Assembly (NCBI GenBank): GCA_007376185.1
Contig: VMFS01000007.1
Span: 1,390-65,389 of the forward strand
Source: Parcubacteria group bacterium Gr01-1014_30
GTDB taxonomy: Bacteria; Patescibacteriota; Minisyncoccia; Minisyncoccales; 2-12-FULL-40-12
Reading direction: 5' to 3'
DNA length: 64,000 nt
The notes below the pieces were generated by a model. That model worked only from the letters and a program-made list of their open reading frames with translations. It ran no database searches and was not told the origin of the DNA. Positions 8,940 through 58,334 of this stretch are shown here, piece by piece. Every line of letters begins with the position of its first letter. Positions within the stretch are counted from its first letter, which is position 1. The position numbers and the translations under genes are program-made.

Positions 8940-9291
8940 GCAATAGTCGTTCGGCAACGAATTAAGCGCTCGCCGCATCCGCGCAAGCGAGGCGTAGCCG
9001 AGTGTAGCGCGGGAGAAGAGAATGAAGTTCTCTGCGACCCCATCGGGGAGCTCGCTGAACCTTCGGTTCCTCTCGCCCTTTGTTTCCGCTTCGCGGAAAC
9101 TCGGAGCACGCAGTCGCCGTAAAGGTGTAATATAAACTATATTCACTGGCGCTGCTATCTCTCGCCCCGCCTCAAACTGACAGGTGGTTATACAAAACTC
9201 TCAGTTGGCGGGGCTGCGAGGTGCACCCCTCACGGGAATGCGGCTCGCTCCAATTTCGTAATTTCGTATAATTTTCGTATTTCGTAGCATT

Positions 9292-9819
9292 ATGATTTAT
9301 TTAGCCGCAGACCACAGAGGGTTTGAGCTTAAAGAAAAAATAAAGGAGTGGCTTGAGGGTTGGGGTTATGAGGTCGCAGAAAGCAAGCTTTCTTCTCCCC
9401 CCGTCGCTGGCGCTCGGGAATACGAAGACATGGGCGCTTTTGAGTTAAATCCAACCGACGACTATGTTGACTTTGTTTCAAAAGCCGCCAAAAAGGTTTC
9501 TGAAGACCCAGAAAATTCAAAAGCCATAATTCTTGGGGCATCAGGACAGGGTGAAGCAATGCTGGCAAACAAGTTCAGGAGGGTAAGAGCCGTTGTTTAT
9601 TACGGAGGCGACGAAGAAATAATTTCTCTTTCCCGCGAGCATAACGACGCCAATGTTTTATCTCTGGGCGCGGCTTTGGGCCCGAAGTTTGAAGAGGCAA
9701 GAAAAATGCCGGAGGATTTGGCAAAACGCGTTGTGAAAACCTGGCTAGAAACTCCTTTTTCCGGAGCCGAGAGGCACAAAAGGCGTCTCCAAAAAATAAA
9801 AAAAATTGAAACCCCGTAA
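9292..9819 (+). CDS. rpiB: ribose-5-phosphate isomerase B
   Basis: IYLAADHRGFELKEKI, GQGEAMLANKFRRVRA and HNDANVLSLGA. Compared with E. coli RpiB it carries an extra segment of about 14 aa. Confidence 0.8.
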   Translation: MIYLAADHRGFELKEKIKEWLEGWGYEVAESKLSSPPVAGAREYEDMGAFELNPTDDYVDFVSKAAKKVSEDPENSKAIILGASGQGEAMLANKFRRVRAVVYYGGDEEIISLSREHNDANVLSLGAALGPKFEEARKMPEDLAKRVVKTWLETPFSGAERHKRRLQKIKKIETP

Positions 9820-10064: not shown

Positions 10065-10541
10065 ATGAGGCGCTTACTTTCCGGAATAATTGCTATGGCG
10101 GCGGCAGTCGTTATTGTGTTTTCGGTTTTGTACTTTCCAAAAACTTTTTTTTACAGGTCTGTCCCAAAAGCGGAAACACCAGAAAAACCTTCTTACTCTT
10201 TTTTGCTTGCCGACACTCCTGAAAAAAGAATACAAGGCCTTTCCGGAATGGTTTCTTTGCCTCCTAACACGGTTTTACTTTTTTCTTACGACAACAATGA
10301 CAGCTGTGGCATTTGGATGAAAGGTATGAAGTTTTCAATTGACGTGGTGTGGCTGGACAGCAATTTCAGGATAATTGATTTCAAAGAAGGCCTTTCTCTT
10401 TTAAGCTATCCTGGTGTGTTTTCTCCGGTTTCGCCTTGCCGCTATTTTGTTGAGGCACAAGAAGGCTTTATAAAAGCCAACAACATCAGAATCGGCGACA
10501 AGGTATCCATAAACTTTGCCGACTTTCTGCTTAACTTTTGA
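10065..10541 (+). CDS. DUF192-like protein with N-terminal membrane anchor
   Basis: TM segment followed by GLSGM...LLF...WMKGMKFSIDVVWLD, the typical DUF192 pattern. Confidence 0.6.
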   Translation: MRRLLSGIIAMAAAVVIVFSVLYFPKTFFYRSVPKAETPEKPSYSFLLADTPEKRIQGLSGMVSLPPNTVLLFSYDNNDSCGIWMKGMKFSIDVVWLDSNFRIIDFKEGLSLLSYPGVFSPVSPCRYFVEAQEGFIKANNIRIGDKVSINFADFLLNF

Positions 10542-10615
10542 AGTATTTATTTACGGATTTTTGAATGGAGCTAGAATAGACGTGCAAAGGTCAGTGAATA
10601 TTTAACCATGGTTGT

Positions 10616-12784
10616 ATGGCTTATCGTTGGGATTCTGGCGGCGGTATGGTTATGGAAACAAATTCAAAAGAAGTAAAAACATTTTATACCTGCCCAATGC
10701 ATCCCGAAGTCAGGCAGGATATGCCCGGGATGTGCCCTGAGTGCGGAATGCAGCTTGTTAAAATTCGAAATTCGACCACAGCCCATTTCCAATGGGCTGG
10801 GTCGCCCAGCCCTTTAGTAAGGGCTGTGGCGAAATTCGAAATTCGAAATTCCGCGCACGGCGCGGATAAACATGAGGGGCATAAAGCAGAAAGTTTTCTC
10901 AAAAAGTTCTGGGTGAGTTTAGTTTTAACAATTCCAATTGTGGCGTACTCTGAACTGCCGAAGTTGTTTTTCGGCTGGCAAGCGCCTGCTTTTTCCGGCT
11001 CTGAATATCTCCAGCTGATATTTGGTTCAATAGTATTTTTTTACGGCGGCTGGGTGTTTTTGGCTGGAGCTTTGAGAGAACTCCTGGCCAAACTCCCCGG
11101 CATGATGACACTCATTGGTTTAGCCACGACAGCGGCTTATCTGTGGAGCGTTTATGCTGTGTTCGTCGAGCAAGAACCGCTTTTTTGGGAGTTGGCAACT
11201 TTGATTACTGTAATGCTTTTGGGCCACTGGTTTGAGATGAGAGCAGTTCAAGGAGCAAGAGGGGCGTTACGAGAATTAGCAAAGTTGCTGCCAGATGAAG
11301 CTGAAGTAATATTTGAGGGTAAAACAAGAGCTGTACCTATTTCAGAGCTGAAAGTAGGCGACATAGTTTTGATAAAGCCCGGCGCAAAGGTTCCTGCTGA
11401 CGGCAAAGTTATTGAAGGGGAGTCAGACCTTAACGAATCAATCGTAACAGGGGAGTCAAAGCTTGTGCCCAAAAAGTTCTCCGAGGAGGTGATTGCAGGC
11501 AGCATTAACGGCGATGGAAGCTTGAAGGTTGAGGTGACCAAAATAGGCGAGGATACCTTTTTGGCGGGCGTGGCAAGATTGGTGGTTCAAGCGCAGGCGT
11601 CAAAGTCGCGACTGCAGTTGTTGTCTGACAAAGCGGCTTTGTATTTAACTATTATTGCGGTGGTTTCAGGCAGTATTACTTTGGTTGCGTGGCTTCTTTC
11701 CGGTTCTGAAATATCTTTTGCCGTTGCGCGTTTGGTTGCTGTTTTGGTGATTGCCTGCCCTCATGCTTTAGGCCTTGCAGTGCCTCTGGTTGCTTCAATT
11801 TCAACAAATATGGCGGCTTCTTCGGGCTTTTTGGTGAAGCAGCGTCTGGCGCTGGAGGCAGCAAGAAATGTGGACATAGTTCTTTTTGACAAAACCGGCA
11901 CTCTTACTAGGGGAGAGTTTAGCGTTGTCGGGGATTTGGATTCTGAAGTTTTACGTTTGGCCGCCGCCGTGGAAACGCAATCAGAACACCCAATTGCCAG
12001 AGCCATTGTGCAAGAAGCGCGCGAAAAAAAAGTTGCGCTCCCAGAGGTTAAAAACTTCAAAAGAATCCCCGGCGTTGGGGCTGAAGGTCTGGTTCAAGGC
12101 AAGCGCGTTTTTGTTGGGCACAAGGGCGGCGAAATTTTGTTGGAAGTGGACGACAAGGAAATAGGCGCAATCTCTGTTGCCGACGCAGTTAGACCCGAGT
12201 CAAAAGAAGCCGTGGCGGCCTTGCACGAGCAGGGATTAAAGGTTGCCATGATTACGGGCGACTCAAAAGAAGTTGCCAGCCAAGTTGCCAAAGAGCTTGG
12301 AATAGATGTTTATTTTGCTCGTGTGTTGCCGCAAGATAAATCATCTATCGTTAAAAAATTGCAAGAAGGGGATATTGAAGGTTTTGAAAATTGGAAATTG
12401 GAAATTGGAAATTCCAGCCGAAGGCTGGTTGTGGCAATGGTTGGCGACGGAGTCAATGATGCTCCGGCTTTAATGCAAGCAGACATTGGTATTGCGGTGG
12501 GAGCTGGCACCAACGTTGCCATTGAGTCTTCGGGCATTATTCTGGTTAGAAACGACCCGCGCGATATCCCCAAGATTATCCGTTTATCCAAGCTGACTTT
12601 TAACAAAATGCTGCAAAATCTTTTTTGGGCCACAATCTACAACATAGCGGCCCTGCCTCTGGCCGCAGGTGTCCTTTATTCCCGCGGCATTTTAATTGAA
12701 CCCGCCTTTGCAGCCGTGTTTATGTCGGCTTCAACCGTTATTGTGGCGATAAACGCCTTGCTGTTGCGAAGAGCGAAGTTGTAG
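10616..12784 (+). CDS. copA: heavy-metal (Cu-type) P1B ATPase with CPH motif
   Basis: N-terminal YTCPMHPE...MCPECGM metal-binding ribbon, TGES, CPH transmembrane motif (IACPHALGLAVP), DKTGTLT and GDGVNDAPAL. The start may be 10646 (MVMETN). Confidence 0.9.
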   Translation: MAYRWDSGGGMVMETNSKEVKTFYTCPMHPEVRQDMPGMCPECGMQLVKIRNSTTAHFQWAGSPSPLVRAVAKFEIRNSAHGADKHEGHKAESFLKKFWVSLVLTIPIVAYSELPKLFFGWQAPAFSGSEYLQLIFGSIVFFYGGWVFLAGALRELLAKLPGMMTLIGLATTAAYLWSVYAVFVEQEPLFWELATLITVMLLGHWFEMRAVQGARGALRELAKLLPDEAEVIFEGKTRAVPISELKVGDIVLIKPGAKVPADGKVIEGESDLNESIVTGESKLVPKKFSEEVIAGSINGDGSLKVEVTKIGEDTFLAGVARLVVQAQASKSRLQLLSDKAALYLTIIAVVSGSITLVAWLLSGSEISFAVARLVAVLVIACPHALGLAVPLVASISTNMAASSGFLVKQRLALEAARNVDIVLFDKTGTLTRGEFSVVGDLDSEVLRLAAAVETQSEHPIARAIVQEAREKKVALPEVKNFKRIPGVGAEGLVQGKRVFVGHKGGEILLEVDDKEIGAISVADAVRPESKEAVAALHEQGLKVAMITGDSKEVASQVAKELGIDVYFARVLPQDKSSIVKKLQEGDIEGFENWKLEIGNSSRRLVVAMVGDGVNDAPALMQADIGIAVGAGTNVAIESSGIILVRNDPRDIPKIIRLSKLTFNKMLQNLFWATIYNIAALPLAAGVLYSRGILIEPAFAAVFMSASTVIVAINALLLRRAKL
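10761..10850. repeat. in-frame palindromic insertion inside copA (90 nt)
   Basis: gaaattc heptamer copies flank ccacagccc...gggctgtgg. Two inner hairpins (cccatt-tcc-aatggg and ctggg-tcg-cccag). Encodes STTAHFQWAGSPSPLVRAVAKFEIRNS. Confidence 0.6.
12370..12428. repeat. in-frame low-complexity/hairpin insertion inside copA
   Basis: ggaaatt x3 followed by the hairpin ccagcc-gaa-ggctgg. Encodes DIEGFENWKLEIGNSSRRL just before the VAMVGDG motif, where E. coli CopA has no such segment. Confidence 0.55.
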
Positions 12785-12844
12785 AAGAGGGCTTGCCCTT
12801 GTTTGAGGGCTTGACTTCATTTTATGCTTAAATTAAGGTAAAAT

Positions 12845-13029
12845 AAGCGTAGACGGAGAAAGGTCGATTAAAGCGACCCCACATCGGAAGGGGGTCGGGG
12901 AAACCATCCGGTTTCCCCGTGTAGGAAAACAGGTCGCAAAGCGACCGTTAGAAACCGAGGGTTTCTAAAGAGCGAGCCCGAGCGTAGCGAAGCGAGCGAG
13001 GGCGAGCGACCTGATTTAGTATTACCACT
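12845..13029 (+). ncRNA. candidate structured 5' leader RNA, copy 1 (unknown class)
   Basis: About 185 nt between a taaaat -10-like box and the downstream ATG. Homologous to 53568-53776, with a conserved core and a differing central hairpin. Confidence 0.45.
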
Positions 13030-13188
13030 ATGCCTCAAGGTTACTGTGTAAGATGCAAAGCAAAAAGAGAAATGAAAAACGCCAAAGAGATTACCATGAA
13101 AGGAAAGGGCGGCACAACGAGAGCCGCTATGACTGGCGTTTGTGAAAAGTGCGGAACAAAAATGTACAGAATTTTGGGCAAAAAGTAG
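13030..13188 (+). CDS. small zinc-ribbon protein (DUF5679-like)
   Basis: 52-aa ORF not in the track: MPQGYCVRCKAKREMKNAKEITMKGKGGTTRAAMTGVCEKCGTKMYRILGKK (CxxC...CxxC). Confidence 0.55.
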   Translation: MPQGYCVRCKAKREMKNAKEITMKGKGGTTRAAMTGVCEKCGTKMYRILGKK

Positions 13189-20268: not shown

Positions 20269-20862
20269 ATGCCAACGAATCTAAAAGCAGAAAAAACGGT
20301 TGTGATAATCAAGCCCGACGGCGTAAAGCGTGGTTTGGTTGGGGAGATATTTTCCCGTATTGAAAGAAGGGGGCTGAAAGTTATCGCCCTGCAAATGATT
20401 TGGGCCACCAAAAACCAGATTGACGGCCACTACCCAAAAGACGACTCTTGGATAAAGCGTCTCGGCGAAAAAACCTTGAATAACTACAAAAACTATGGTT
20501 TGGACGCCAAAAAAGAGCTGGGAACAGGGGATCCTCTAAAGATTGGCCAAATGGTGAGGGGTTGGCTGATTGACTATTTGACTTCGGGGCCGCTTGTGAA
20601 AGCTGTAATAAGCGGAATCCACGCGGTTGACATGGTGCGCAAGATTGCAGGCGCCACTATGCCCGCTCAAGCTGAAATGGGAACTTTAAGAGGCGACTTT
20701 TCAGTTGACGACGCCACTGTGGCCAACAAAGACAAACGCGCCATACACAATATACTTCACGCGTCTGAAACCCCCGAAGAAGCCGAACACGAACTGCAAT
20801 ACTGGTTCGCTCCCGAAGAAATCCACGACTATCGAAGAGCAGAGGAAGATATAATGTTTTAG
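20269..20862 (+). CDS. ndk: nucleoside-diphosphate kinase (long form with insertion)
   Basis: EKTVVIIKPDGVKRGLVGEIFSRIERRGLKV, GTLRGDF and the NILHASE active-site region. Confidence 0.8.
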   Translation: MPTNLKAEKTVVIIKPDGVKRGLVGEIFSRIERRGLKVIALQMIWATKNQIDGHYPKDDSWIKRLGEKTLNNYKNYGLDAKKELGTGDPLKIGQMVRGWLIDYLTSGPLVKAVISGIHAVDMVRKIAGATMPAQAEMGTLRGDFSVDDATVANKDKRAIHNILHASETPEEAEHELQYWFAPEEIHDYRRAEEDIMF

Positions 20863-28291: not shown

Positions 28292-30121
28292 ATGATGGAA
28301 GAAACAAGGCAATGTCAAAATTGTCATCAGGAGTTCCGGATTGAACCCGACGATTTTGCTTTTTACGAGAAAATAAAGGTTCCGCCGCCGACTTTTTGCC
28401 CGGAATGCAGGATGCAGAGGCGCATGGCTTTTAGAAATGAGCGAACTCTCCACAAACGCAGCTGCGACCTTTGCCAAAAATCAGTTATAAGCGCTTACTC
28501 GGCAGAAGCGACATTTCCGGTGTATTGTTCTGAGTGTTGGTGGTCGGACAAATGGGACCCCTTTGAATATGGGCGTGAGTACGATTTTAACAAATCTTTT
28601 TTTCAGCAGTTCAAAGAACTTCAAGATAAAGTTCCGCGCCAGCACACCAACAACACTTCGCCGGCTACACTCATTAACAGCGAATATACGAACTGCGCGG
28701 GAGATTCAAAGAACTGTTACTTGATGTTCGGCGCCGGTTGGAACGAAGACATTCTTTACGCGCATTACACCAATCACTCCAAAAACTGCGTTGACACTCT
28801 ATATTGCCTAAACAGCGAGCTTTGCTACGAATGTTTTGACGTTGATCAGTGCTATAACGTGCGTTTTTCGCAAACCTGCCTGTGGTGTCGCGATTCAATG
28901 TTTCTATTTGACTGCCGCAACTGTTCAGATTGCATAGGGTGTGTGGGTTTGCGCAACAAAAAATATCATATTTTCAACAAGCCGTACACAAAATCAGAGT
29001 ACTTAAAAGAAAAAGAAAAGTTACAGTTGCACACAAGGCCTGGCCTTGAGCGTTTTCGTAAGGAATTCGAAGATAATCTTTATCTTAAATTGCCCCGGAA
29101 ATACTATCACGGTCAGATGAACCGGAACGTTTCGGGCGATTATATCTCAAATTCCGACAACACTCAAGGCTTTTACACAAAAAACGCCAAGGACTCCAAG
29201 TACTTGTTTTGGTGCATCAACGCCAAGGATGTTTATGACTACTTTGCCTGGGGAGATCTGGAACTATGCTACGAATGCGTTTCCGGCGGTTACAATATGT
29301 ACTTTTGTAAGTTTGTGCATACCGCCTGGGGCGATCTGAGAAACGTTGAATATTGCAGTTTGTGTTTTACATCTTCTGATATTTTGGGATGCATCGGCTT
29401 GCGAAGCAAGCAGTATTGTATTCTTAATAAAAAGTATTCCAAGGCAGAGTACGAAAAGTTGTTGTCGCAAATTAAAAAGCACATGGCAGAAATGCCTTAC
29501 CGAGACAGAAGGGGAATGCTTTACGCTTACGGCGAAAACTTCCCGATCGAACTGTCGCCTTTTCCTTATACTGACACCGTGGCTCAAGAGCACTTTCCAT
29601 TGACCAAATCTGAAATACAGAAAGCAGGATACATTTGGCATGAGCCGGTTCAAAGAAACTATGTTATTACAAAAAAACACGCAGAGTTACCAGATTCTAT
29701 AACTGAAGTTTCAGAGAGCATACTTGACGATGTTACTAGTTGCGAGCACGAAGGCACGTGTAATGAGCAATGTACCTTTGGTTTTAAAATCGTTCCGCAA
29801 GAACTGCAGTTTTATCAAAAAATAAACGTGCCTTTACCAAAACTGTGCCATAACTGTAGGCATTCTGGTCGGGTTAAACAAAGAAACCCTCTTAAGCTAT
29901 GGCACAGAAAGTGCACTTGTGCAGGTCAGACCTCTGCCAATGGCATTTACCAAAACACGGTCCAGCACTTCCACGGACAAGAACCCTGCCCCAACGAGTT
30001 TCAAACGAGTTATGCTCCACAGCGTCCGGAAATAGTATATTGTGAACGATGCTACCAGGCCGACCCCGACCGCCCCGAGATAGTTTACTGTGAAAAGTGC
30101 TACCAGGCAGAGGTGGTATAA
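28292..30121 (+). CDS. cysteine-rich multi-zinc-ribbon protein, paralog 2 (duplicated C-terminal motif)
   Basis: 609 aa. N-terminus CQNCHQEFRIEPDDFAFYEKIKVPPPTFCPECR. C-terminus reads ...RPEIVYCERCYQADPDRPEIVYCEKCYQAEVV, so the terminal motif occurs twice. Confidence 0.8.
   Translation: MMEETRQCQNCHQEFRIEPDDFAFYEKIKVPPPTFCPECRMQRRMAFRNERTLHKRSCDLCQKSVISAYSAEATFPVYCSECWWSDKWDPFEYGREYDFNKSFFQQFKELQDKVPRQHTNNTSPATLINSEYTNCAGDSKNCYLMFGAGWNEDILYAHYTNHSKNCVDTLYCLNSELCYECFDVDQCYNVRFSQTCLWCRDSMFLFDCRNCSDCIGCVGLRNKKYHIFNKPYTKSEYLKEKEKLQLHTRPGLERFRKEFEDNLYLKLPRKYYHGQMNRNVSGDYISNSDNTQGFYTKNAKDSKYLFWCINAKDVYDYFAWGDLELCYECVSGGYNMYFCKFVHTAWGDLRNVEYCSLCFTSSDILGCIGLRSKQYCILNKKYSKAEYEKLLSQIKKHMAEMPYRDRRGMLYAYGENFPIELSPFPYTDTVAQEHFPLTKSEIQKAGYIWHEPVQRNYVITKKHAELPDSITEVSESILDDVTSCEHEGTCNEQCTFGFKIVPQELQFYQKINVPLPKLCHNCRHSGRVKQRNPLKLWHRKCTCAGQTSANGIYQNTVQHFHGQEPCPNEFQTSYAPQRPEIVYCERCYQADPDRPEIVYCEKCYQAEVV
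29965..30063 (+). repeat. 99-nt block identical to 56694-56792
   Basis: gcacttccacggacaagaaccctgccccaacgagtttcaaacgagttatgctccacagcgtccggaaatagtatattgtgaacgatgctaccaggccga reads identically at both loci, while the flanking gene sequence differs. Confidence 0.85.
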
Positions 30122-30126
30122 ACTAC

Positions 30127-30441
30127 ATGAACGTTAAGTTCTTTGACAGTAAAACCGAACGATTTATTAAAATGCTGGACGCGCAAACCGTTGCGCGGAC
30201 ATTGCGTACAATCGATCTTCTGGAAATGTTTGGCCATAAACTCGGATTTCCCCACAGCAAAAAAGTTGAGCCGCGGATTTTTGAACTTCGGGTGCGCGGA
30301 AAACAAGAAGTGCGGATTTTCTACACTTTTCACGACGGCGAGGCGATTCTTTTACACGGTTTTATAAAGAAATCACAACGGCTTCCGAGGAAAGAAATTG
30401 AAGCCGCGCGGCGTACACTGAAAGTACTTGACAGCTCATAA
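30127..30441 (+). CDS. HigB/Gp49-like (RelE-fold) toxin
   Basis: Track ORF 30097-30441; likely start is ATG 30127 (MNVKFFDSKTERF). IFELRVRGKQEVRIFYTFHDGEAILLHGFIKKSQRLPRKEI. Confidence 0.65.
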   Translation: MNVKFFDSKTERFIKMLDAQTVARTLRTIDLLEMFGHKLGFPHSKKVEPRIFELRVRGKQEVRIFYTFHDGEAILLHGFIKKSQRLPRKEIEAARRTLKVLDSS

Positions 30442-30465
30442 CGTATACGTTATACTAACCGTGCT

Positions 30466-30744
30466 ATGAAAAGTTATACACAAGCGAAAAACCGCCTTCT
30501 CAAGAATCGCCGCGTCAAAAAGGCATATGAGGAACTGGGGCCCGAATTTGAAGTTATCGCGCTTCTTATCAAGATGCGGCTTCGCAAAAATATCAGCCAG
30601 AGAGCGCTTGCCGAACGCATGGGCACCAAGCAGTCGGCAATTTCTCGGCTTGAATCTGGGCAGTATAACCCGAGTCTGTCTTTTCTCTATAAAATTGCCC
30701 GCGCATTAAATGCGCAAGTGAAAATTTCCTTAGGCTCGAAGTAA
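30466..30744 (+). CDS. XRE-family HTH antitoxin (HigA-like)
   Basis: ISQRALAERMGTKQSAISRLESGQYNPSLSFLYKIARALN helix-turn-helix. Confidence 0.75.
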   Translation: MKSYTQAKNRLLKNRRVKKAYEELGPEFEVIALLIKMRLRKNISQRALAERMGTKQSAISRLESGQYNPSLSFLYKIARALNAQVKISLGSK

Positions 30745-30750
30745 AAAGTG

Positions 30751-30840
30751 AAATGCCCCAACGAGTTTGAGACCTCCTACGCGCCAGAGCGCCCTGAAAT
30801 CGTCTACTGCGAAAAGTGCTACCAAGCAGAAGTTGTATAG
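30751..30840 (+). pseudogene. 3'-terminal fragment of a Cys-rich family gene
   Basis: Translates to KCPNEFETSYAPERPEIVYCEKCYQAEVV*, with no upstream gene body. Lies directly after the higA-like stop. Confidence 0.75.
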
Positions 30841-30867
30841 TTTTGTTTATTTTGATATACTTTAAGT

Positions 30868-31056
30868 ATGACCACCCAGACCCTTATTAGAAAAATAAAT
30901 CAGCGTCAGAACTTGATTCTGGAAGAAATGCGTCAGCTTCAAACCAAAATAAAAATTCTTGGTTCTTTGAGACGTTTTGAGGACTTGGCTAAAAAAGGAA
31001 GGAAATTTGCCAAAGCAAAAGGCATAAAGCCGAGCGACGTACTCAAGAATGACTAG
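30868..31056 (+). CDS. putative antitoxin (MTTQ-type)
   Basis: MTTQTLIRKINQRQNL is homologous to MTTQMLIRKINREVST (58335). Preceded by tttgatatact. Confidence 0.4.
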   Translation: MTTQTLIRKINQRQNLILEEMRQLQTKIKILGSLRRFEDLAKKGRKFAKAKGIKPSDVLKND

Positions 31057-31273
31057 GGCTGTTTTGGACACTAACATTTTTATTTCGTCTCTCGTTGAAC
31101 TGCAAGAAAGCGTTCGCGCGGTTGCCAAAGACCCATCTGATAGTAAAATTATTGAGTGCGCCCTTGCCGGAAAGGCGTATTTTATTGTTTCCGGCGATAA
31201 ACATCTTCTTGACTTGCGGCAGTATCAAAAGATAAAGATCGTTACCCCAAACCAATTTCTTAAATACTTATGA
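31049..31273 (+). CDS. PIN-domain toxin, apparently internally truncated
   Basis: Only 74 aa. It has a PIN N-terminus (AVLDTNIFISSL) and C-terminus (YFIVSGDKHLL...IVTPNQFL) but lacks the middle part seen in the 139-144 aa PIN genes in this window. Confidence 0.45.
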   Translation: MTRAVLDTNIFISSLVELQESVRAVAKDPSDSKIIECALAGKAYFIVSGDKHLLDLRQYQKIKIVTPNQFLKYL

Positions 31274-31299
31274 ATCGTGAGACACAAAATTGCCAAAAA
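31270..31299 (+). pseudogene. 5'-terminal fragment of a Cys-rich family gene
   Basis: ATGA overlap with the PIN stop, as at 17476. Encodes MNRETQNCQK (compare MNPETRTCQNCK and MRETRNCQNCK); homology is then lost. Confidence 0.5.
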
Positions 31300-31814: not shown

Positions 31815-31968
31815 TCTTTTGCTGCGCAAAAGAAAATCCGAAGCACGAAATCCCAAGCACGAAACAAATTCAAATACCAAATGACCGAAATTCAAAAAAA
31901 CCGTTTAAAATTTTAGAAATTGTAATTTAGATATTGTTTCGAATTTCGATGTTCGAATTTAAACTATT

Positions 31969-34236: not shown

Positions 34237-34552
34237 AAAAAAGGACCAAAGAAGGGCGCTCTTGAAAAGCTTGGCCCAGGCCTTAACTTTGAGAGAGAAA
34301 ATTAAAACCACCGAGGCAAAAGCCAAAGAGTTGGCTCCTTTTTTTGCCAAACAAGTAACGAGAGCAAAAGCGGGGAGCTTGGCCGCCAAGCGCTCCTTGT
34401 CCGCAATATTTTCTCAGGCAGTCGTCAAAAAACTGGTAGACGAAGTTGCGCCCAGGCACAAAGACAGAAAAGGCGGCTACACGCGCATTATAAAACTGGG
34501 GCAGAGAAAATCGGACGGAGCCCGTTTGGTGATTATAGAGTTAGTTAAGTAA
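34202..34552 (+). CDS. rplQ: 50S ribosomal protein L17
   Basis: MRKRKKGRRLSRKKDQRRALLKSLAQAL and GGYTRIIKLGQRKSDGA. Overlaps rpoA by 35 nt. Confidence 0.85.
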   Translation: MRKRKKGRRLSRKKDQRRALLKSLAQALTLREKIKTTEAKAKELAPFFAKQVTRAKAGSLAAKRSLSAIFSQAVVKKLVDEVAPRHKDRKGGYTRIIKLGQRKSDGARLVIIELVK

Positions 34553-34654
34553 GCGTAAAGCGTAAAGCTAAAAATGCAAAACAAAAACTTAAAAGTCAAA
34601 ATAATTTAAACTTTACGCTGTTGTTTTGCGCTTTGCGCTTTTAGTTTTTAGTTT

Positions 34655-39366: not shown

Positions 39367-39448
39367 CCATGCCAGGTAGTGAAAACTCCGCCACTGCCGA
39401 AGGCAGTGAAATAATTACGATTGGCGGAGTTTTCACTACCTGGCATGG
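39367..39448 (+). promoter_or_regulatory. 26-bp perfect hairpin covering the secA start codon
   Basis: ccatgccaggtagtgaaaactccgcc (39367-39392) pairs perfectly with ggcggagttttcactacctggcatgg (39423-39448). The secA ATG is at 39445-39447. Confidence 0.6.
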
Positions 39449-42081
39449 GGATTTTAACTAAAATTTTCGGCGACGCCAACGAAGCGTATCTCAAAAAACT
39501 TCAGCCCTTTGTTGAAAAGATCAACTCGCTTGAAAAAGAGTACGAGGCTTTTTCCGATGAAAAACTCAAAGAAAAAACCCAAGAACTGAAAAACAAGGTC
39601 AATGGAACGCGGGTCGCTGAGACTTCGTCTAATCTCCCGCCTCGCTCACCGAGCCCGAATAGGGCGAAGGTAAAGACGAAGTTTCAACTTCGTCTGACGG
39701 CTTCGCCGAGTTCGGCGAAAGACGCCGTTTCATTGGAGGGGGTGTTGCCAGAGGCGTTTGCTTTGGTTCGGGAAGCCGCCAAAAGAACTTTGAGGCAGAG
39801 GCATTTTGACGTTCAGCTGATCGGAGGCATTGTTTTGCATCAGGGCAAAATCGCTGAAATGAGAACCGGCGAAGGAAAAACTTTGACCGCCACCCTGCCT
39901 TTGTATTTGAACGCATTGGAAGGCAAGGGCTGTCATTTGGTTACGGTAAACGACTACTTGGCAAAAAGGGACGCAGTGTGGATGGGGCAAATATATCATG
40001 CACTGGGGCTGTCCGTCGGGTGTATTACGCATGAAACGGCCTATTTGTACGACCCAACAGCCAAGCAGGACGCAGAAAGAGACACGCTCGGAGGATTCAA
40101 AGTTATTGAAGATTTTTTGAGACCGGTTTCAAGAAGAGAGGCGTATGAGGCCGACCTTACTTACGGAACTAACAATGAGTTCGGGTTTGACTACTTAAGA
40201 GACAATATGGTTTATGATTTGCCGCAACAGGTTCAGTCCCGATTGCAAAGCGATCGAGGATCCTCGACTTCCTTGGAGTCGGGACGCGGATTTAATTTTG
40301 CTATTGTTGACGAAGTCGACTCAATTTTAATTGACGAGGCGAGAACCCCTTTGATTATTTCCTCTCCGGACGTGGAGAGCTCAAAATGGTATCTTGATTT
40401 TGCTAGAATTATTCCACGATTAGACCCCAAAACCGACTACGAGATTGACGAAAAACTGCGGGCCGTAACCTTGACCGAACAAGGCATCAACAGAGTTGAA
40501 AAAATTTTGGGCTTGGGCAACATTTACGAAGAAAAAGGTATAAAATACTTGCATCATTTGGAACAGGCCTTGAGAGCTGAAGTTCTTTTCAAAAAAGACA
40601 GGCACTATGTGGTTAAACAGGGGCAAGTGATAATTGTTGACGAGTTCACGGGTCGTTTGATGCCCGGGCGCAGGTGGTCAGGCGGTCTGCACCAGGCAGT
40701 GGAAGCGAAAGAAGGTGTTAGAGTACAGCCCGAATCTTTGACCTTGGCCTCAATAACTTTTCAGAATTACTTCAGGATGTACAAAAAACTGTCAGGCATG
40801 ACGGGAACGGCCGTAACTTCTGCCGAAGAGTTTGACAAGGTTTATAACTTGGACGTTACTGTCGTGTCTACCAACAAGCCAATGGTTCGTCAGGACCTGC
40901 AAGACCGCGTTTATAAAAATTCTGAAGGCAAGTTTAGCGCTTTGGTCGGAGAAATCAAAGAAAGACACAAAACGGGCCAGCCGGTTTTGGTAGGGACTAC
41001 TTCAATTGAGAAAAACGAGTACTTGAGCAAGTTATTGACAGCTGAGGGCGTGCCTCACCAAATTTTGAACGCCAAGAACCACGAAGCAGAAGGCGCCATA
41101 ATTGCTCAGGCGGGCAAGCCGGGCGCTGTAACCATTGCCACGAATATGGCGGGCAGGGGAGTGGATATAATCCTGGGGGGCAATCCCCAGGACCCTGAGC
41201 AAAGTCGAAGGGTTTTGGAAGCAGGCGGACTCCATGTTATCGGCACCGAACGCCACGAAGCCAGAAGAATTGACAACCAGTTGCGGGGAAGATCGGGCAG
41301 GCAGGGGGATCCTGGTTCTTCCCAGTTTTTCATTTCGCTTGAAGACGACGTAATGAGAATTTTCGGCGGAGACAGGTTGAAATCCTTAATGACGGCTTTG
41401 AAGATTCCCGAGGACCAGCCCATTGAAGCCGGATTGGTTTCAAAAGCCATTGAAGAAGCTCAGTCAAAAATTGAGGGGTTTAACTTTGACTTGCGCAAGC
41501 ACTTGCTGGATTACGACGACGTTATGAATAAGCATAGAGAAGTTATTTATAAAAGGAGAAGGCAGTTTTTGTCAACTGAGGATTGGAAGACGGAAGTTGG
41601 AAATTGGACGAAAAACGAAGAAGAGAAAAAAATTCTTGAGCAAAAAGAAAAGGAATTGGCAGAAAACTTTAATCAAGTTGCCAAATTCATCGCTCTAAGG
41701 ACTTTAGACATGCTTTGGATGAACCACTTGGAGGAAATGGAGGCACTGCGGGATTCTGTACGTTTGCGGGCTTACGGGCAGAGAGATCCGCTTGTGGAGT
41801 ACAAAAATGAAGGCCACAAAATGTTTCAGAATCTTTTGCGCTTGATTGAAACAAATATAGTTCAGATGCTTTTCAGAGCTCAATTGACAAAAGAACCTAA
41901 GGGACATGTTCACCACCCCGCCGCGGCGCCAGCCGCGGCCAAGGTTGGCAACAAAGTCGGCCGCAACGACCCCTGCCCGTGTGGAGCGATTAACCCTAGT
42001 ACGGGGGAAGTCTATAAATATAAAAAATGCGGGCTTATTAACGCACCTTATCATAAAGAAGGGCAATCCAAGATTTTGTAA
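39445..42081 (+). CDS. secA: preprotein translocase ATPase SecA
   Basis: The track ORF starts at ttg 39421; the canonical start is [10 protein letters not shown] at 39445. [44 protein letters not shown], and the C-terminal CPCG...KKCG zinc motif. Confidence 0.9.
39600..39735. repeat. in-frame palindromic insertion 1 inside secA (about 135 nt)
   Basis: Outer arms caatggaacg / cgtttcattg. Inner gagacttcgtct / agacgaagtttc, and ttcgccga-gt-tcggcgaa. Encodes roughly 40 extra residues between ELKNKV and [11 protein letters not shown] relative to E. coli SecA. Confidence 0.6.
40236..40285. repeat. in-frame palindromic insertion 2 inside secA
   Basis: gtcccga...tcgggac arms around the 14-bp perfect palindrome tcgaggatcctcga. 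Encodes [16 protein letters not shown] directly before FAIVDEVDS. Confidence 0.6.
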
Positions 42082-42634
42082 GTTTTAATAGTTCTTTCCG
42101 TGCTTTTGGTATTTTCGATCGAGCATTCAATTTCAAAAACTCCCTTGTTATAAGTGCATGACAATTAGGACAGACAACCATTAAGTTATCTATTTCATGT
42201 TGACCTCCTTGATGTTTTGGTGTTATGTGGTGGGTGTCAATTGTTAGGTTGTAATTACACAGTTCACACACCTTCCCATATTTTTTAATTGCTTGAGCCC
42301 TAATCCATGCTTTATGTTTTTTGATTTCGCCATATAGATATTTTTTGATACCTAAGTTCCTTCTTCGATACTTCACCGTCCATAACGTAGATCCTTTGTA
42401 ATCTTTTTCTCTTAACGCTTTTGCAATTTCTTTATCGAGCATAGTACCACAATTCTTGCGGATGAAATCATCCACAAATTCATGCGGTAGTCTTTCCAAT
42501 GCTTGATACGCACCCTTTTTTAATTCAGGATATCCATGACGTCTGACTCGTGCCAAATGCATGATACAGTAGATTTGCCTGGTATTCTTATATCGTGTAA
42601 AGTTTTTACACTCTTTTACTCTACATTCCGGCAT
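42038..42634 (-). CDS. HNH endonuclease
   Basis: [40 protein letters not shown], with an N-terminal Cys/His cluster. Its 3' end overlaps the secA 3' end by 44 nt. Lies in AT-rich sequence. Confidence 0.8.
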
Positions 42635-42704
42635 ATTAGTATATTATAACTTTGATAGCGCTAAAACGCAACAAGTTTTATTTTTTATAAGTATAAAAAA
42701 TGTT

Positions 42705-42968
42705 ATGGAAATTGATTTAAAAAAGTACTGGGATTTATTGAAGGGCGGATGGGACGATATGGATAACCATCGGCTCGAGCTGGAAGCGAAAAGGATTCGA
42801 TTGAAAAATTACGCATATAGATATGGACGGAGCGCTGGAGAATTAAATCGCGAGTACGTCATTGAACGTTTACAGAAGCGACGAAAATGGCTTATAGCTA
42901 CAATTGTTCCAATCGTTTTTGGGTTTTTAGCATTATCAGTAAAGATACTCGTTACCCTATATTCATAA
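42705..42968 (+). CDS. hypothetical small membrane protein
   Basis: 87 aa with C-terminal TM segment WLIATIVPIVFGFLALSVKILV. Confidence 0.3.
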   Translation: MEIDLKKYWDLLKGGWDDMDNHRLELEAKRIRLKNYAYRYGRSAGELNREYVIERLQKRRKWLIATIVPIVFGFLALSVKILVTLYS

Positions 42969-43006
42969 GTAGTTTCTGTAATAAGATAACAAATACAAGC
43001 TTTGTC

Positions 43007-43297
43007 ATGGAGGTTGAGGTTACTGAAGTTATAACAACAGTAGTGGGAATTGTAGGTGTGTCGACAATACTCTGGTACATTGTAGGACTGGCAAGAGTAA
43101 TTTTCTATGAACGTAATATCAATAAGACACACGATTTTCTTGAAAGGAGTAGGAAAGAAATTAAAAAAGAAGGACTATCAGTAGATGGTATAAATGCAAG
43201 AATGTCTGAGCTAGAAAGAGAATGGCTTCCGAAGCTAGAAAAAATGAAGAGGAAAAGGAGATTTATACTAGATAAACTCCCCTTTATTAGAAGGTAG
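43007..43297 (+). CDS. hypothetical small membrane protein
   Basis: Track ORF 42887-43297; likely start is ATG 43007 (MEVEVTEVITTVVGIVGVSTILWYIVGLA). One TM segment, then a charged coiled tail. Confidence 0.3.
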   Translation: MEVEVTEVITTVVGIVGVSTILWYIVGLARVIFYERNINKTHDFLERSRKEIKKEGLSVDGINARMSELEREWLPKLEKMKRKRRFILDKLPFIRR

Positions 43298-43329
43298 TCG
43301 TATGGCTGGGTTAAGAAGTATTAAATTAC

Positions 43330-43551
43330 ATGCGAAGTATAAAGAATCAAAAACAAAAGGCAATACTGGACAAAATGTTGCGTATAATCAAAAAGCAGCC
43401 CGGTATCAGGCCGAGCGAGTTGAACCGACTCCTGCATCTTGAACATTCAGCCCATCTTCGCAACGCGCTTATCAAGCGAGGATTGTTGAGAAAAAAGAGA
43501 AAAGGAGCGACAGTGTATTATTATCCTGTACATAGCGCGTCGTTGACTTAA
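43330..43551 (+). CDS. small winged-helix DNA-binding protein (putative)
   Basis: 73 aa. ILDKMLRIIKKQPGIRPSELNRLLHLEHSAHLRNALIKRGLLRKK. Confidence 0.4.
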   Translation: MRSIKNQKQKAILDKMLRIIKKQPGIRPSELNRLLHLEHSAHLRNALIKRGLLRKKRKGATVYYYPVHSASLT

Positions 43552-43577
43552 GAGATATATTAGTTTATTATAAAATT

Positions 43578-43814
43578 ATGAACACCATTACTATCCCTAA
43601 AAAAATGAGCCGGAAAGGCGATTTGGTGGTTGTGCCTAGGATAGATTACGAACATATGCTTAAGATCAGCCAGCGGCTTTTGCGGGAGGAAAAAGACACG
43701 GACGAGGCGATTAGAGTTTTTGAAAGGGAAAGAAAGATCGGGAAGCTGAAGAGGTCTTCAAGCTTTTACGACATTCTCGTCGGAAGAGATAAATCTCTTC
43801 CTTATCTTCGCTAA
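43578..43814 (+). CDS. putative antitoxin
   Basis: 78-aa ORF 10 nt upstream of a RelE/YafQ-like gene remnant. Confidence 0.35.
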   Translation: MNTITIPKKMSRKGDLVVVPRIDYEHMLKISQRLLREEKDTDEAIRVFERERKIGKLKRSSSFYDILVGRDKSLPYLR

Positions 43815-43824
43815 CGCTAGATAG

Positions 43825-44086
43825 ATGAGGCGAATTTTATATTCTTCTAAGTTTAAGAAAAACTTGAAGAAGATGCCTGATTTTGTTAAGGAAGCTTTCC
43901 TTGAAAAGGAAAGTTTGTTTTTAAGCAACCCCTTTCACCCTTCCTTGGAGACGCATAAACTTCACGGGAAGTACAAAGAGTACTGGGCTTTTACGCTCCA
44001 TAGGTCAGTACAGAATTATGTTTAAGTTCATTGGTAAAGGAGATTTTGGTTTTATCAACGTAGGTACTCACGAAATCTATAAGTAA
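43825..44086 (+). pseudogene. RelE/YafQ-like toxin with a frameshift
   Basis: ORF 43825-44025 ends ...HGKYKEYWAFTLHRSVQNYV*. Shifting the frame by one nt near 43997 gives SIGQYRIMFKFIGKGDFGFINVGTHEIYK* (stop 44084-44086), the expected RelE-type C-terminus. Confidence 0.55.
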
Positions 44087-44104
44087 GTGAGAGGCCTCTT
44101 AAAT

Positions 44105-48736: not shown

Positions 48737-50086
48737 ATGTTTCACCAAGAAATCGTTGACATACTCTTGCAGGTTGCGACCAATTGGTGGTGGCTCATTT
48801 TGCCGCTTATTCTTTGGTTTCCCGCCGCCTTTTTTTACCTTTGGTGGCTGAGCTGGGAAGTTTGGTACCCCAAGTATAAATGGGTTGTTTTGGAAATAAA
48901 GCCGCCCAAAGAGATTCTAAAACCCTTCAGGGCTATGGAGGACATTTACTCGGGGCTTTGGGGCGTAATAGACACTCCAAACTGGCGGGAAAAGTGGTGC
49001 GAAGGGGAGGTTGAATTGGGCGGAGGCCTTTGGTTTTCTTTTGAGGTTGTTTCCCTTGGCGGAAACATCCACTTTTATCTAAGAATAAAAGAGGAGTTTC
49101 GCGATACAGCCGAGTCCGTGATTTACGCTCAGTATCCGGACGCGGAAATCACCGAAGTTGAGGACTACGCCAAAAACGTTCCCCAGGACCTGCCTAATAA
49201 AGACTGGAATTTGTACGCAGAAGATTATCAGTTCAGCAAGGAAGATCCTTACCCCATCAAGACCTACAGCAAGTTTTTTGAAGAAAGGCCTGAAGTCGCC
49301 AAAGAAGAAAAAAGGATTGATCCAATGGACGCCCTCTTGGAAGGCTTGAGCAAGGTAACTCCAGACGAACAGCTTTGGCTTCAAATCGGATGCATTCCGC
49401 TGCTTGACAGACTTATGCCGAAGCGTTGGATAACAAGGGGCAAAGAAATAAGGGATGAACTTGCCAAAAGACCAAAGGCCAAGAAGCCAAAACCAATGAT
49501 TGAAGAGGCCGTTGACGTTTTGCTTGTCGGTCCCTCAACAGAAAAGGAAGTTAAGGATCCCTTTGCGTCCGCGGTAGAGTTTCGTTTGACTCCCGGGGAA
49601 AAAGATACTTTGGCGGCAATTGAAAATAAAATATCAAAGCATGGTTACAGCTGCTGGATAAGAATGGTGCACATTTTTAAAGCCGACAAACCGCACTTGA
49701 GAGGCAGACAATACACAATGAGAAGCTACTTCCAGCAATTTATGACCGAGAGTTTGAATTCAATTAACTATCTTGGCGTTACAAGAACCAGAATACATTA
49801 CGTATTTCCTAAAAGGCGCCTTTTTATGAGAAAGCGAAGGCAGTTTAGAAATTACATTAAAAGGGTGCCCCCTTACTACCCTAAAATGACAGGAGAACCT
49901 TCTTCTTTTCTCAAGCTGGAACTGCTCGGCGAGTCAAAAGGCCCCGGTCTAGGAAAGGGCACAATGGTGCTGAACATTGAGGAACTTGCCACCATTTTTC
50001 ATTTTCCGACGAAAATCATTGTTCCCGGCGTTCCTTACGTTGAAGCTAAAAAAGCGGGTCCTCCTCAAGACTTGCCAACAGAATGA
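48737..50086 (+). CDS. membrane protein partner of the P-loop ATPase (unknown family)
   Basis: 449 aa. W-rich N-terminal TM hairpin (NWWWLILPLILWFPAAFFYLWWLSW), then a soluble domain. Its stop overlaps the ATPase start (ATGA). Confidence 0.5.
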   Translation: MFHQEIVDILLQVATNWWWLILPLILWFPAAFFYLWWLSWEVWYPKYKWVVLEIKPPKEILKPFRAMEDIYSGLWGVIDTPNWREKWCEGEVELGGGLWFSFEVVSLGGNIHFYLRIKEEFRDTAESVIYAQYPDAEITEVEDYAKNVPQDLPNKDWNLYAEDYQFSKEDPYPIKTYSKFFEERPEVAKEEKRIDPMDALLEGLSKVTPDEQLWLQIGCIPLLDRLMPKRWITRGKEIRDELAKRPKAKKPKPMIEEAVDVLLVGPSTEKEVKDPFASAVEFRLTPGEKDTLAAIENKISKHGYSCWIRMVHIFKADKPHLRGRQYTMRSYFQQFMTESLNSINYLGVTRTRIHYVFPKRRLFMRKRRQFRNYIKRVPPYYPKMTGEPSSFLKLELLGESKGPGLGKGTMVLNIEELATIFHFPTKIIVPGVPYVEAKKAGPPQDLPTE

Positions 50087-53567: not shown

Positions 53568-53776
53568 GCAGGAATGAAGAGAAAGGTCGAGTTAGTCAAT
53601 ATAACACCAAAATACCCCACTTCGGAAGGGGGTCGGGGAAACCCACAGGTTTCCCCGTATAGGAAAACAGGCTTTCGCCGGAGGCGAAAACGCCAGAAAC
53701 CGAGGGTTTCTGGAGAGCGAGCCCGAGCGTAGCGAAGTGAGCGAGGGCGAGCGACCTAATTTGGTGTTACCACAAG
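53568..53776 (+). ncRNA. candidate structured 5' leader RNA, copy 2
   Basis: Preceded by the extended -10 tggtataat (53553-53561). Shares ccccacNtcggaagggggtcggggaaacc-NNNN-ggtttccccgtNtaggaaaacagg and agaaaccgagggtttct...gagcgagcccgagcgtagcgaagNgagcgagggcgagcgacct with 12845-13029. Confidence 0.5.
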
Positions 53777-54082
53777 ATGATTTTTCTTTACGTATTTTGT
53801 AAAGACGTCAACGAGGCCAAAACAATCGGAACTTTGTTGGTAACACAGAGGATTGCCGGCAAAGTGGATATAATACCAGTTCAATCAATTTTTCGAGAAA
53901 GAGAAGGGATTCAAGAGCGAGAAGGAGCGGCAATGATTGTAAAGACCATTGATAAGAAAATTCAAGACGTAGAAGATGTTGTTCGGCAGCATCAGCTTAA
54001 CAGGACTTCCTGCATTGCGTCTTTTGCGCTTTATCGCTTGAACCGCGAATTCAAAGAGTGGCTGGTGGCTTCCACCGCCTAA
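53777..54082 (+). CDS. cutA: CutA1-like divalent-cation-tolerance protein (putative)
   Basis: 101 aa. AKTIGTLLVTQRIAGKVDIIPVQSIF...MIVKT...REFKEWL matches the CutA pattern loosely. Confidence 0.5.
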   Translation: MIFLYVFCKDVNEAKTIGTLLVTQRIAGKVDIIPVQSIFREREGIQEREGAAMIVKTIDKKIQDVEDVVRQHQLNRTSCIASFALYRLNREFKEWLVASTA

Positions 54083-54175
54083 CGTTTCTATGTCGTTAGA
54101 AATTGTTTATTGCGAGGCCTGTTATAACGCGGAGGTTGTTTGACTTCGGCATTATATTTTGGTAATATTTAGTAT

Positions 54176-54379: not shown

Positions 54380-54390
54380 AAATAAGATAT

Positions 54391-58300: not shown

Positions 58301-58334
58301 TTGCATAGCAGTTATTATTTTGCTATACTAAAAT

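Follow-up and report, generated by a model that had tools for sequence, protein, structure and literature searches.

The copA-type P1B heavy-metal ATPase gene of Parcubacteria group bacterium Gr01-1014_30, an uncultured member of the candidate phyla radiation (CPR, Patescibacteria) represented by a metagenome-assembled genome (MAG), carries two in-frame insertions in the 64-kb stretch of DNA analysed here (the window). With a probability of roughly 0.6, we consider that these inserts are small repetitive DNA lodged in coding sequence, that is, heptamer arrays accompanied by short hairpins or palindromes. Heptanucleotide repeats and palindromes resembling miniature inverted-repeat transposable elements (MITEs) are already known, and the GAAATTS (GAAATTC or GAAATTG) arrays and the palindrome described here are a variant of these. 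A first-pass annotation of the same DNA had described the two segments as copies of one proliferating palindromic element of the kind found in Rickettsia. The observation holds up and reaches further than that annotation supposed; as to the mechanism, we infer slippage, insertion of a small element and recombinational spread. Below, Q denotes the copA gene of the window, the prefixes L and P denote comparison DNA loci and comparison proteins, respectively, and the coordinates of the features are collected in Table 1.

The open reading frame (ORF) of copA is 100% identical to the annotated heavy-metal P-type ATPase of Gr01-1014_30 (P0001), for which the NCBI annotation gives 710 amino acid residues and thus, by arithmetic, a start at position 10652. 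Its product contains the Pfam domains HMBD (PF19335), E1-E2_ATPase and HAD hydrolase. Insert 1 begins where the HMBD ends and lies between this domain and the first membrane helix, while insert 2 precedes the GDGxNDxP motif of the P domain. When 32 CopA homologs were aligned, the five closest orthologs (P0002–P0006, 74–75% BLASTP identity, 76–79% over aligned columns) have neither insert, and a clean empty site for insert 2 can be read in ortholog DNA, for example in L004 (cag / ttg cga ggt ttg aaa gtg gcg atg). Among the best 120 CopA matches, insert 2 is present in only three, including the window copy (the others are P0014 and P0120). The structures of CopA from Legionella (3RFU) and Archaeoglobus (3J08) also show a gap of 17–18 residues opposite EGDIEGFENWKLEIGNS, so that insert 2 comes to lie after the last helix and before the strand leading into GDGxNDxP. 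Both segments are thus in-frame insertions in copA, as the first-pass annotation had proposed; the reading frame is intact throughout the gene and the residues in question are not shared by the closest orthologs. In the AlphaFold2 model of the protein (mean predicted local distance difference test score, pLDDT, 69.9), residues 52–89 have pLDDT below 50, and residues 585–605 form coil and a short helix (pLDDT 64–79) between the helix 572–584 and the strand 606–610. Insert 1 therefore falls in a low-confidence linker and insert 2 in a P-domain loop, and the idea that such segments are tolerated in loops holds.

The two segments could also be seen as old, lineage-specific linkers or loops that vary in length, with the repeats as incidental low complexity. 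In favour of such ancestral loops, the length of the N-terminal linker varies in all homologs, and heptamer-coded peptides are found at the site of insert 1, directly after CPECGMxLV, in P0050, P0102 (encoded by L005), P0040 and P0052 as well; in P0050, for instance, the array AAAATTA AAAATTC AAAGTTA AAAATTC AAAATTT of L135 encodes VKIKNSKLKIQN. This view is set against the lack of both segments in the closest orthologs, the occurrence of the palindrome of insert 1 at unrelated loci and, for insert 2, the polyphyly of its carriers and a synonymous-site identity that is raised only inside the inserted module, all described below. It is largely refuted, and we regard it as very improbable. As a separate matter, programmed –1 frameshifting in E. 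coli copA reportedly yields the chaperone CopA(Z), and the window gene has in common with that case a heptamer-containing sequence, followed by a strong RNA structure, just after the N-terminal metal-binding domain. It differs from the E. coli gene in that there is no in-frame X XXY YYZ slippery site at 10755–10780 and the structure is absent from the closest orthologs, and frameshifting of this type was rejected.

Insert 1 consists of a heptamer array interrupted by a nested palindromic core of 54 nt. The heptamers flanking the inverted repeat are as the first-pass annotation described them, and the core could now be delimited to 10776–10829. It starts and ends with 9-bp terminal inverted repeats, CCACAGCCC and GGGCTGTGG (9/9 complementary), and has an inner stem GGGCTGGG-tcg-CCCAGCCC. 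The inverted repeat does enclose small hairpins, but there are three alternative ones (10779–10799, 10794–10812 and 10807–10826) rather than the two reported before. The core is an inverted doublet of an imperfect palindrome or hairpin unit of about 26 nt, since its left half reads CCACAGCCC-ATTTCCAAT-GGGCTGGG and the reverse complement of its right half reads CCACAGCCC-TTACTAAA-GGGCTGGG, and it can therefore fold into a single long hairpin or into two to three short ones. The RNA of 10755–10856 (102 nt) is predicted to fold with –49.7 kcal/mol (z = –6.9; none of 200 shuffled sequences was equally stable), and the DNA of the same stretch with –32.4 kcal/mol (z = –7.6). When the entire window was scanned in sliding segments, insert 1 came out as the top folding outlier in any coding region, in agreement with its first description as a palindromic insertion at about 10761–10850. 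Moreover, the heptamer doublet GAAATTCGAAATTC has four matches with at most one mismatch, against 0.11 expected, and this number was reached in none of 100 shuffles. When the core and one of the flanking CGA repeats are removed, AAAATTC(GAAATTC)4 C is left, a stretch of 36 nt or 12 codons (KIRNSKFEIRNS) in which the frame is kept. Because deletion restores the phase of the array, insert 1 can be understood as a palindrome that landed in a pre-existing array of five units with a duplication of 3 bp.

The core is not confined to copA. A full HMMER search with the 39-residue insert peptide against 1.84 billion representative proteins found two proteins with the core peptide, and the DNA of both holds the same 54-nt element. 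One copy, in L136 (200–253), is 49/54 identical to the core of the window; it lies within a GAAATTC array whose flanks are nearly those of Q, and its flanking repeat is CGA. The other, in L137 (2427–2480; contigs L137–L139), is located in the clpP-nusA spacer and is 48/54 identical; it lies between arrays of other units, AATGCAA and CAAAATT, with the flanking repeat CAA. The inverted repeats are identical in all copies, a covariance model of the core (R1) gave the copies scores of 81–86 bits, and in all three cases deletion of the core and one repeat restores the phase of the array, the flanks themselves being repetitive. We infer from this shared anatomy a very small MITE-like element that targets heptamer arrays or is retained in them. 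The core is thus a dispersed element with copies at two unrelated loci in other assemblies, whereas the single copy in 64 kb, with none in the other array-bearing loci, lends no support to proliferation of the core within Gr01-1014_30. It may be added that L136 is a contig of 616 nt from ENA, in which an ORF (124–540) joins a TsaD-like N-terminus (MYILGIDTSCDDTCIAV) to the DALR C-terminal domain of ArgRS, and that the junction runs through the heptamer array and the 54-nt core. This contig is probably an assembly chimera across the repeat, and if so, its genome would hold at least two copies. Beside the clpP-nusA copy, a polyprenyl synthase gene (L139, 3962–5032) contains a LAGLIDADG intein according to precomputed Pfam data.

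Multiple-displacement amplification is known to generate palindromic chimeras as artefacts. The palindrome of insert 1 could have been made by an inverted chimera during amplification or assembly of the MAG, and insert 1 in copA is indeed known from one contig only. However, insert 1 is in frame and stop-free over 30 codons, and the core occurs in independent assemblies from other samples: the small ORF over the clpP-nusA copy (P0126) is indexed in 41 collection blocks, and 24 carrier contigs were read. In addition, the arrays are found in a finished genome and in long-read MAGs. An artefact is the least probable of the explanations weighed here and can hardly be credited. A scan of viral contigs for the inverted repeats of the core gave 10 matches, all of them unrelated GC-rich hairpins, and a comparison with Rfam at gathering and permissive cut-offs gave nothing beyond generic hairpin matches (17–24 bits against gathering scores of 50–95).

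Insert 2 has a different make-up. It is an array of four TTGRAAA units followed by a GC hairpin of 6 bp, and the heptamer doublet GGAAATTGGAAATT has four matches, compared with 0.10 expected. The array and the hairpin reported by the first-pass annotation at 12370–12428 are real, but the insertion is better placed at 12365–12415 and its predicted fold is no better than that of shuffled sequences (z = 0.11), so that the term 'palindromic' fits insert 1 only. Both inserts nevertheless have the layout of array, then hairpin, and in both the array ends in GAAATTCC before the GC hairpin. Along the lines of the first reading, the two inserts and the intergenic heptamer and hairpin sequences might form a single proliferating family similar to the Rickettsia palindromic elements (RPEs), with the heptamers as its ends. 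The common ending just mentioned speaks for it, as do the in-frame palindromic insertions in SecA and the fact that Q and L136 share the core and nearly the same GAAATTC flanks, by which array, core and array could move together. Against it, insert 2 has neither the core nor a significant fold, the core of L137 lies between different units, more than 120 arrays have no core, the hairpins adjoining arrays differ in sequence at the 13 surveyed loci that have one, and the palindromes of SecA are unrelated in sequence to the core of insert 1. The two inserts are thus not copies of one element, and a single family seems to us improbable, although less so than ancestral loops or an artefact. Relatives of the arrays in intergenic DNA, also part of the first description, do exist in the window as heptamer or octamer arrays, but these mostly have other units, and only the one at 31937–31960 shares the copA unit. 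The heptamer unit itself is very widespread and often in frame within genes.

Insert 2 is not private to this gene. A metagenome scan anchored on its array and ATGGTNGGNGAYGG yielded nine further loci (L126–L134), and no fewer than 11 further, polyphyletic P-type ATPase genes (L001, L002 and L126–L134) have the module of array and hairpin at the codon where Q has it. In a neighbour-joining tree without support values, these carriers are interleaved with insert-free genes. The query CopA is 75% identical to the insert-free P0003 and 64% to the nearest carrier, L127 is 80% identical to the insert-free P0105, and each of Q, L001 and the pair L127/L132 is clearly closer to an insert-free relative than to any distinct carrier; L129, L130 and L134 are about 40% identical to any insert-free comparison CopA, in a comparison set made up of the best matches to the query. 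Nevertheless, over 54 nt the module is 43–48/54 identical to that of the query (80–89%) in the ten compared loci with a full-length intact module, and the degenerate module of L002 is 38/54 identical (70%), compared with 61–79% in the 90-nt flanks. Between Q and L001, the identity at third codon positions is 0.75–0.80 in the module and about 0.35–0.40 elsewhere; this rise is limited to about 50 nt, and a long recombination tract was therefore rejected. The hairpin variants of the carriers (CCAGCC/GGCTGG, CCCGCC/GGCGGG and CCCGC/GCGGG) are all paired. Pairing amounts to 88%, compared with 30–53% in slid controls, with an A-T to C-G compensation at one pair, and the covariation score was reached by one of 500 shuffles, whereas the peptide encoded over the hairpin varies (SRRL, NQRL, RPWR, RQKR and RQRR). 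The polyphyletic carriers, the conservation of the module DNA and the paired hairpin over a varying peptide exclude a simple ancestral loop for insert 2. We favour horizontal transfer of the module from one divergent P-type ATPase gene to another, for which short-patch recombination is the probable route, with the conserved DNA that encodes GDGxNDxP as its anchor, or else maintenance of the module at the nucleotide level. At its left edge, the array reads cGG TTT GAA Aat in most other carriers (for example in L129) and has the 9-mer GGTTTGAAA in common with the insert-free sequence cga GGT TTG AAA gtg; the window reads GGTTTTGAAA there. This comparison suggests that the 9-mer may have been a seed or microhomology for the array, whether it arose de novo or was transferred. 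As a further observation, a second heptamer-derived insertion, NAKIKNQNDTSKFKIQTKTT, made up of the units AATGCAA, AAATCAA and AAAATTC, is present at about residues 205–230 (actuator-domain region) of the copA product of L001 (P0014).

The same data bear on the possibility that the module is a functional nucleic-acid element, either a contingency (phase-variation) switch or an intragenic signal for pausing, termination or stability. The module is the best-conserved stretch of DNA among the ATPase genes, even at 40% protein identity, and its pairing is kept by compensation while the peptide drifts. A change of one unit (7 nt) would break the frame, and L133 has one unit fewer, so that its downstream GDG motif is out of frame, while in L128 the array is duplicated; in SecA, moreover, an array-derived segment has been kept widely. 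On the other side, most close homologs work without the module, the unit number is constant (four) in nearly all carriers, which gives little sign of active switching, and the covariation rests on 10 sequences and two variable pairs. L133 is a contig end of 1.3 kb, and its missing unit could be an error. Moreover, a consensus scan of 10500–13100 revealed no promoter-like or terminator-like site at either insert, which leaves the ideas of an antisense terminator and an internal promoter unsupported, and Rfam gave nothing above noise. We consider a function of this kind unlikely, though slightly less so than a single RPE-like family.

The heptamer arrays are a widespread class in their own right. 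A scan for GAAATTSGAAATTSGAAATT over one genome per species (596 Gb) detected (GAAATTS)n arrays at no fewer than 120 loci, where about four would be expected by chance (an estimate that assumes uniform composition). The hosts are largely CPR bacteria, and also include Acidobacteriota, Verrucomicrobiota, Planctomycetota, Bacteroidota, MAGs labelled as Proteobacteria and a Nitrosopumilus MAG; one of them is a complete genome (CP012155), in which the gene with the array, judged by its translation, is likely to encode MetRS (methionyl-tRNA synthetase), and others are long-read MAGs. In 68 of 125 cases, the reading frame through the array stays open over 40 or more codons to either side, and the array encodes the peptide KLEIGNW, KFEIRNS or ISNFQFP. 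From their translations, the genes with in-frame arrays look like those for MurC, TsaD, MetRS, ValRS, transketolase and RecJ. Among perfect arrays of at least three copies in 839 kb of array loci, 151 have period 7 (45 of them with other units), 19 have period 4, eight period 8, three period 6 and one period 5, and there is none with periods 9–12. Both GAAATTC and GAAATTG are free of stop codons in all six frames, a property shared by only 15% of AT-rich heptamers. In addition, hairpins are enriched at the 3' end of the arrays as read on the GAAATTS strand: one starts between –2 and +4 nt from this end in 15 of the 125 arrays, compared with 65 of 2,500 controls; for stems of at least 9 bp the numbers are 7/125 and 2/2,500, and on the 5' side 2/125. 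These hairpins differ in sequence among the 13 surveyed loci that have one. L050 represents a second case of a hairpin within an array, with a flanking repeat of 2 nt. A literature search, incomplete in its coverage, returned nothing that ties heptamer repeats to Patescibacteria and nothing on GAAATTS units.

The gene for SecA in the same window shows that copA is no isolated case, and in-frame insertions of repeats and palindromes are thus recurrent in these genomes. A 35-codon insertion private to this SecA has an occupancy of 0–2% among 119 homologs, and an insertion of 16 codons that is itself a palindrome is absent from 119 of 119 homologs (the closest being 78% identical); L151 shows the empty site cleanly. 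At about residue 716, at least 72 of 120 SecA homologs have [WFL][KRQ]x[EK]I[GEK][ND]W, the peptide of a GGAAATT array, and the homolog L150 has a perfect array of four units at this site. A blastn-short comparison detected no sequence shared between the SecA palindromes and the copA core.

Table 1. Coordinates of the features discussed, given as positions in the window
Feature	Position	Strand	Basis or remark
copA-type P1B heavy-metal ATPase ORF	10616–12784	+	722 codons; open through both inserts
HMBD zinc-ribbon-like metal-binding domain, N-terminal, residues 23–49	10682–10762	+	PF19335; aligns with 3RFU residues 34–63
Insert 1, left part of heptamer array, AAAATTC GAAATTC GA	10760–10775	+	Read from sequence, repeat search
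Insert 1, left 3-nt direct repeat CGA, putative target-site duplication	10773–10775	+	Deletion of core and one CGA leaves a perfect 5-unit array
Insert 1, nested palindromic core, 54 nt, 18 codons TTAHFQWAGSPSPLVRAV	10776–10829	+	Inverted-repeat search, fold, covariance model R1
Insert 1, right 3-nt direct repeat CGA	10830–10832	+	Read from sequence
Insert 1, right part of heptamer array, CGAAATT x 3.1 (C GAAATTC GAAATTC GAAATTC)	10830–10851	+	Repeat search
7-bp hairpin TCCGCGC-acg-GCGCGGA, directly 3' of insert 1 array	10850–10866	+	Hairpin search; absent from the first-pass annotation
Insert 2, 17 codons EGDIEGFENWKLEIGNS, residues 584–600, P-domain loop just before VAMVGDGxNDAP	12365–12415	+	Homolog and PDB alignment
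Insert 2, heptamer array TTGAAAA TTGGAAA TTGGAAA TTGGAAA TT, 4.3 units	12384–12413	+	Repeat search
Hairpin CCAGCC-gaa-GGCTGG over last bases of insert 2 and codons S601–V605	12414–12428	+	Sequence; pairing kept across ATPase loci
Intergenic array sharing the copA unit (TTCGAAA-type), directly 5' of rpsM (ribosomal protein S13) start codon	31937–31960	–	Repeat search
Nested palindrome, 61 nt, within 35-codon insertion private to this SecA	39655–39715	+	–34.6 kcal/mol, z = –6.6
Palindrome TCCCGA...TCGGGA, 48 nt, exactly the 16-codon SecA insertion	40237–40284	+	z = –3.9
Degenerate GGAAATT-type array in SecA	41581–41610	+	Homologs keep WKLEIGNW

By default, we read the inserts as tolerated DNA, either selfish or generated by slippage. 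We assume that GAAATTC/GAAATTG arrays grow and shrink by slipped-strand mispairing. Three properties allow them to persist in genes: the unit is stop-free in all six frames, a set of three units amounts to 21 nt and so preserves the frame, and in copA the arrays fall in a disordered linker and a surface loop. The 54-bp palindrome would then have been inserted into the array of five units in the manner of a very small MITE, or of an element similar to the repetitive extragenic palindromic doublets that form hairpins (REPINs); the insertion event is deduced from the three copies with the same anatomy. The insert 2 module, in turn, may have moved horizontally or may have been held constant at the nucleotide level, as set out above. 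Several observations weigh against this explanation. Transposition is deduced from three contexts only, one of which (L136) is possibly chimeric, and within an array an identity of 3-nt flanks arises more easily by chance. Searches with blastn-short and R1 gave no second core copy, either in the window or among the other array-bearing loci (about 1 Mb), and transposase domains are absent from the 60 main ORFs of the window and one overlapping ORF. The interleaving of module carriers comes from a tree that lacks support values, and the conservation of the module at the nucleotide level together with the compensatory changes in its hairpin suggests constraint or function. Furthermore, slippage alone leaves unexplained why the same unit occurs across phyla and why the hairpins are one-sided. 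It is conceivable that an enzyme-driven process writes GAAATTS arrays and hairpins or palindromes across phyla, in a homing-like manner into the ATPase and SecA sites, after which the modules would be kept as frame-sensitive switches or intragenic regulatory hairpins. A transposase of small elements or HUH nuclease, or a templated activity that adds repeats, would be the candidate enzymes. We hold such a process to be as doubtful as a functional nucleic-acid element.

The inserts can also be compared with small repeats of other bacteria. RPEs reportedly fall into families with consensus sequences of about 100–150 bp and many copies per Rickettsia genome. Insert 1, and insert 1 only, resembles them as a hairpin-forming palindrome that lies in frame in a protein gene and adds a peptide in a tolerated surface region. 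It differs in that the core has 54 bp, lies within a heptamer array, has one copy in 64 kb and belongs to a CPR host. The size is thus outside the range of RPEs and the analogy is only conceptual, and of the Rickettsia-type assignment made earlier only this general idea survives. In common with MITEs such as the Correia elements of Neisseria, the core has terminal inverted repeats of 9 bp, is flanked by a 3-bp repeat at each of its three sites, lacks coding capacity and occurs in different contexts, namely copA, the TsaD/ArgRS-like contig and the clpP-nusA spacer (three contexts only). It is much smaller, however, its target is apparently a tandem heptamer array, and there is no transposase in the window; apart from the transposase, the features of a MITE are all found. 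REPINs lie outside genes, measure about 100 nt, reach copy numbers of tens to hundreds and are associated with genes for REP-associated tyrosine transposases (RAYTs). The core is similar in that it is an inverted doublet of short imperfect palindromes that can form one long or two short hairpins. Unlike REPINs, the copA copy is intragenic and single in the window, and no Y1/HUH transposase, the enzyme class of RAYTs, is encoded there, so that in location, copy number and RAYT linkage it is no REPIN. The small dispersed repeats (SDR) of Nostoc are reportedly mobile, tens of nucleotides long, hairpin-forming and inserted at precise sites. They are likewise very small hairpin-forming mobile repeats, but in other organisms and with other sequences.

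For the arrays, the closest known counterparts are heptanucleotide repeats. Heptamers are described as over-represented among long bacterial simple sequence repeats, with their origin and role left open (PMC4679880, PMC4692102). Known examples are the TAACTGA repeats of Beggiatoaceae (PMC4679880) and, both covered in PMC4692102, the GGGAATC repeats of Xanthomonas and the short tandemly repeated repetitive (STRR) sequences of cyanobacteria. The arrays studied here agree with them in having period 7, the commonest period, few units, a frequent position beside start or stop codons and inverted pairs; units of 7 nt stand head to tail in at least three copies, above chance, with the same unit at 120 or more loci. 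They differ in their unit, GAAATTS, and in that about half of them are located within ORFs, where they extend housekeeping proteins by a peptide, whereas the described heptamer cases are mainly intergenic and TAACTGA in its forward orientation cannot be read through. Moreover, the same array can occur at the same codon in divergent orthologs, and a hairpin stands on one side.

CPR genomes are very small, and yet Gr01-1014_30 tolerates arrays and palindromes in essential genes such as copA and secA. The arrays would represent a class of 7-nt repeats that crosses phyla, can be read in any frame and forms in-frame parts of housekeeping proteins; small palindromes are attracted by such arrays or occur together with them, and the arrays can share a codon position in proteins that are only about 40% identical. 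Peptides such as KLEIGNW, KFEIRNS and ISNFQFP would thus mark events at the DNA level and not selection at the protein level, and in the annotation and alignment of CPR sequences the repeats can give rise to spurious 'motifs' and possibly to chimeric contigs. For the dominance of heptamers among long bacterial microsatellites, the polarity of array and hairpin and the 3-bp duplications offer testable handles.

Other repeats and hairpins of the window are recorded here as separate observations. A near-perfect hairpin of 23 bp with an inner stem of 6 bp (39370–39445) lies directly upstream of the likely SecA start (ATG 39445) and overlaps it; the fold of 39370–39470 (–56.1 kcal/mol, z = –10.5) is the strongest folding outlier in the window. 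Five intergenic spacers (60599–60717, 61911–62031, 63166–63254, 34551–34654 and 9252–9286) form long, imperfect hairpins whose arms are tandem units of 7–8 nt, with one set of units each: AGAATCT/ATTCTAA, AGAATAA/TATTCTA, CTACGAAA/TTTCGTAT and AAGCGTA...TTTGCGC/TTTTAGT. Their T-rich arm stops just before the next start codon, and in the spacer at 63166 the left arm extends into the C-terminal codons of the upstream gene. Furthermore, a hairpin-rich leader of about 170 nt is present in two copies that are 86% identical (12850–13029 and 53575–53776). The first runs up to the start codon of an ORF for a DUF5679 zinc ribbon (13030–13188), and the second up to that of the CutA1 gene (53777–54082). 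Their stems have compensatory changes, for example TTAGAAACC-gag-GGTTTCTAA versus CCAGAAACC-gag-GGTTTCTGG, and neither copy matches Rfam; the two leaders are candidates for a structured cis-regulatory RNA. RpiB (9292–9819) and NDK (20269–20862) extend about 30–45 residues beyond their Pfam models. The extra segment of RpiB (AESKLSSPPVAGAREYEDMG) has a small palindrome, agaaagc-aa-gctttct, and that of NDK has no obvious one and was dropped as a further palindromic insertion. Finally, small ORFs similar to toxin-antitoxin or addiction genes (Gp49/HTH, PIN_3 and others; 30097–31280, 42635–44090, 54083–55022 and 58301–58829), an ORF for an HNH endonuclease (42038–42634) and genes for TrwB/VirD4-like ATPases (50083–51846 and 56825–58300) together suggest that the second half of the window includes a region of mobile or conjugative origin or function.

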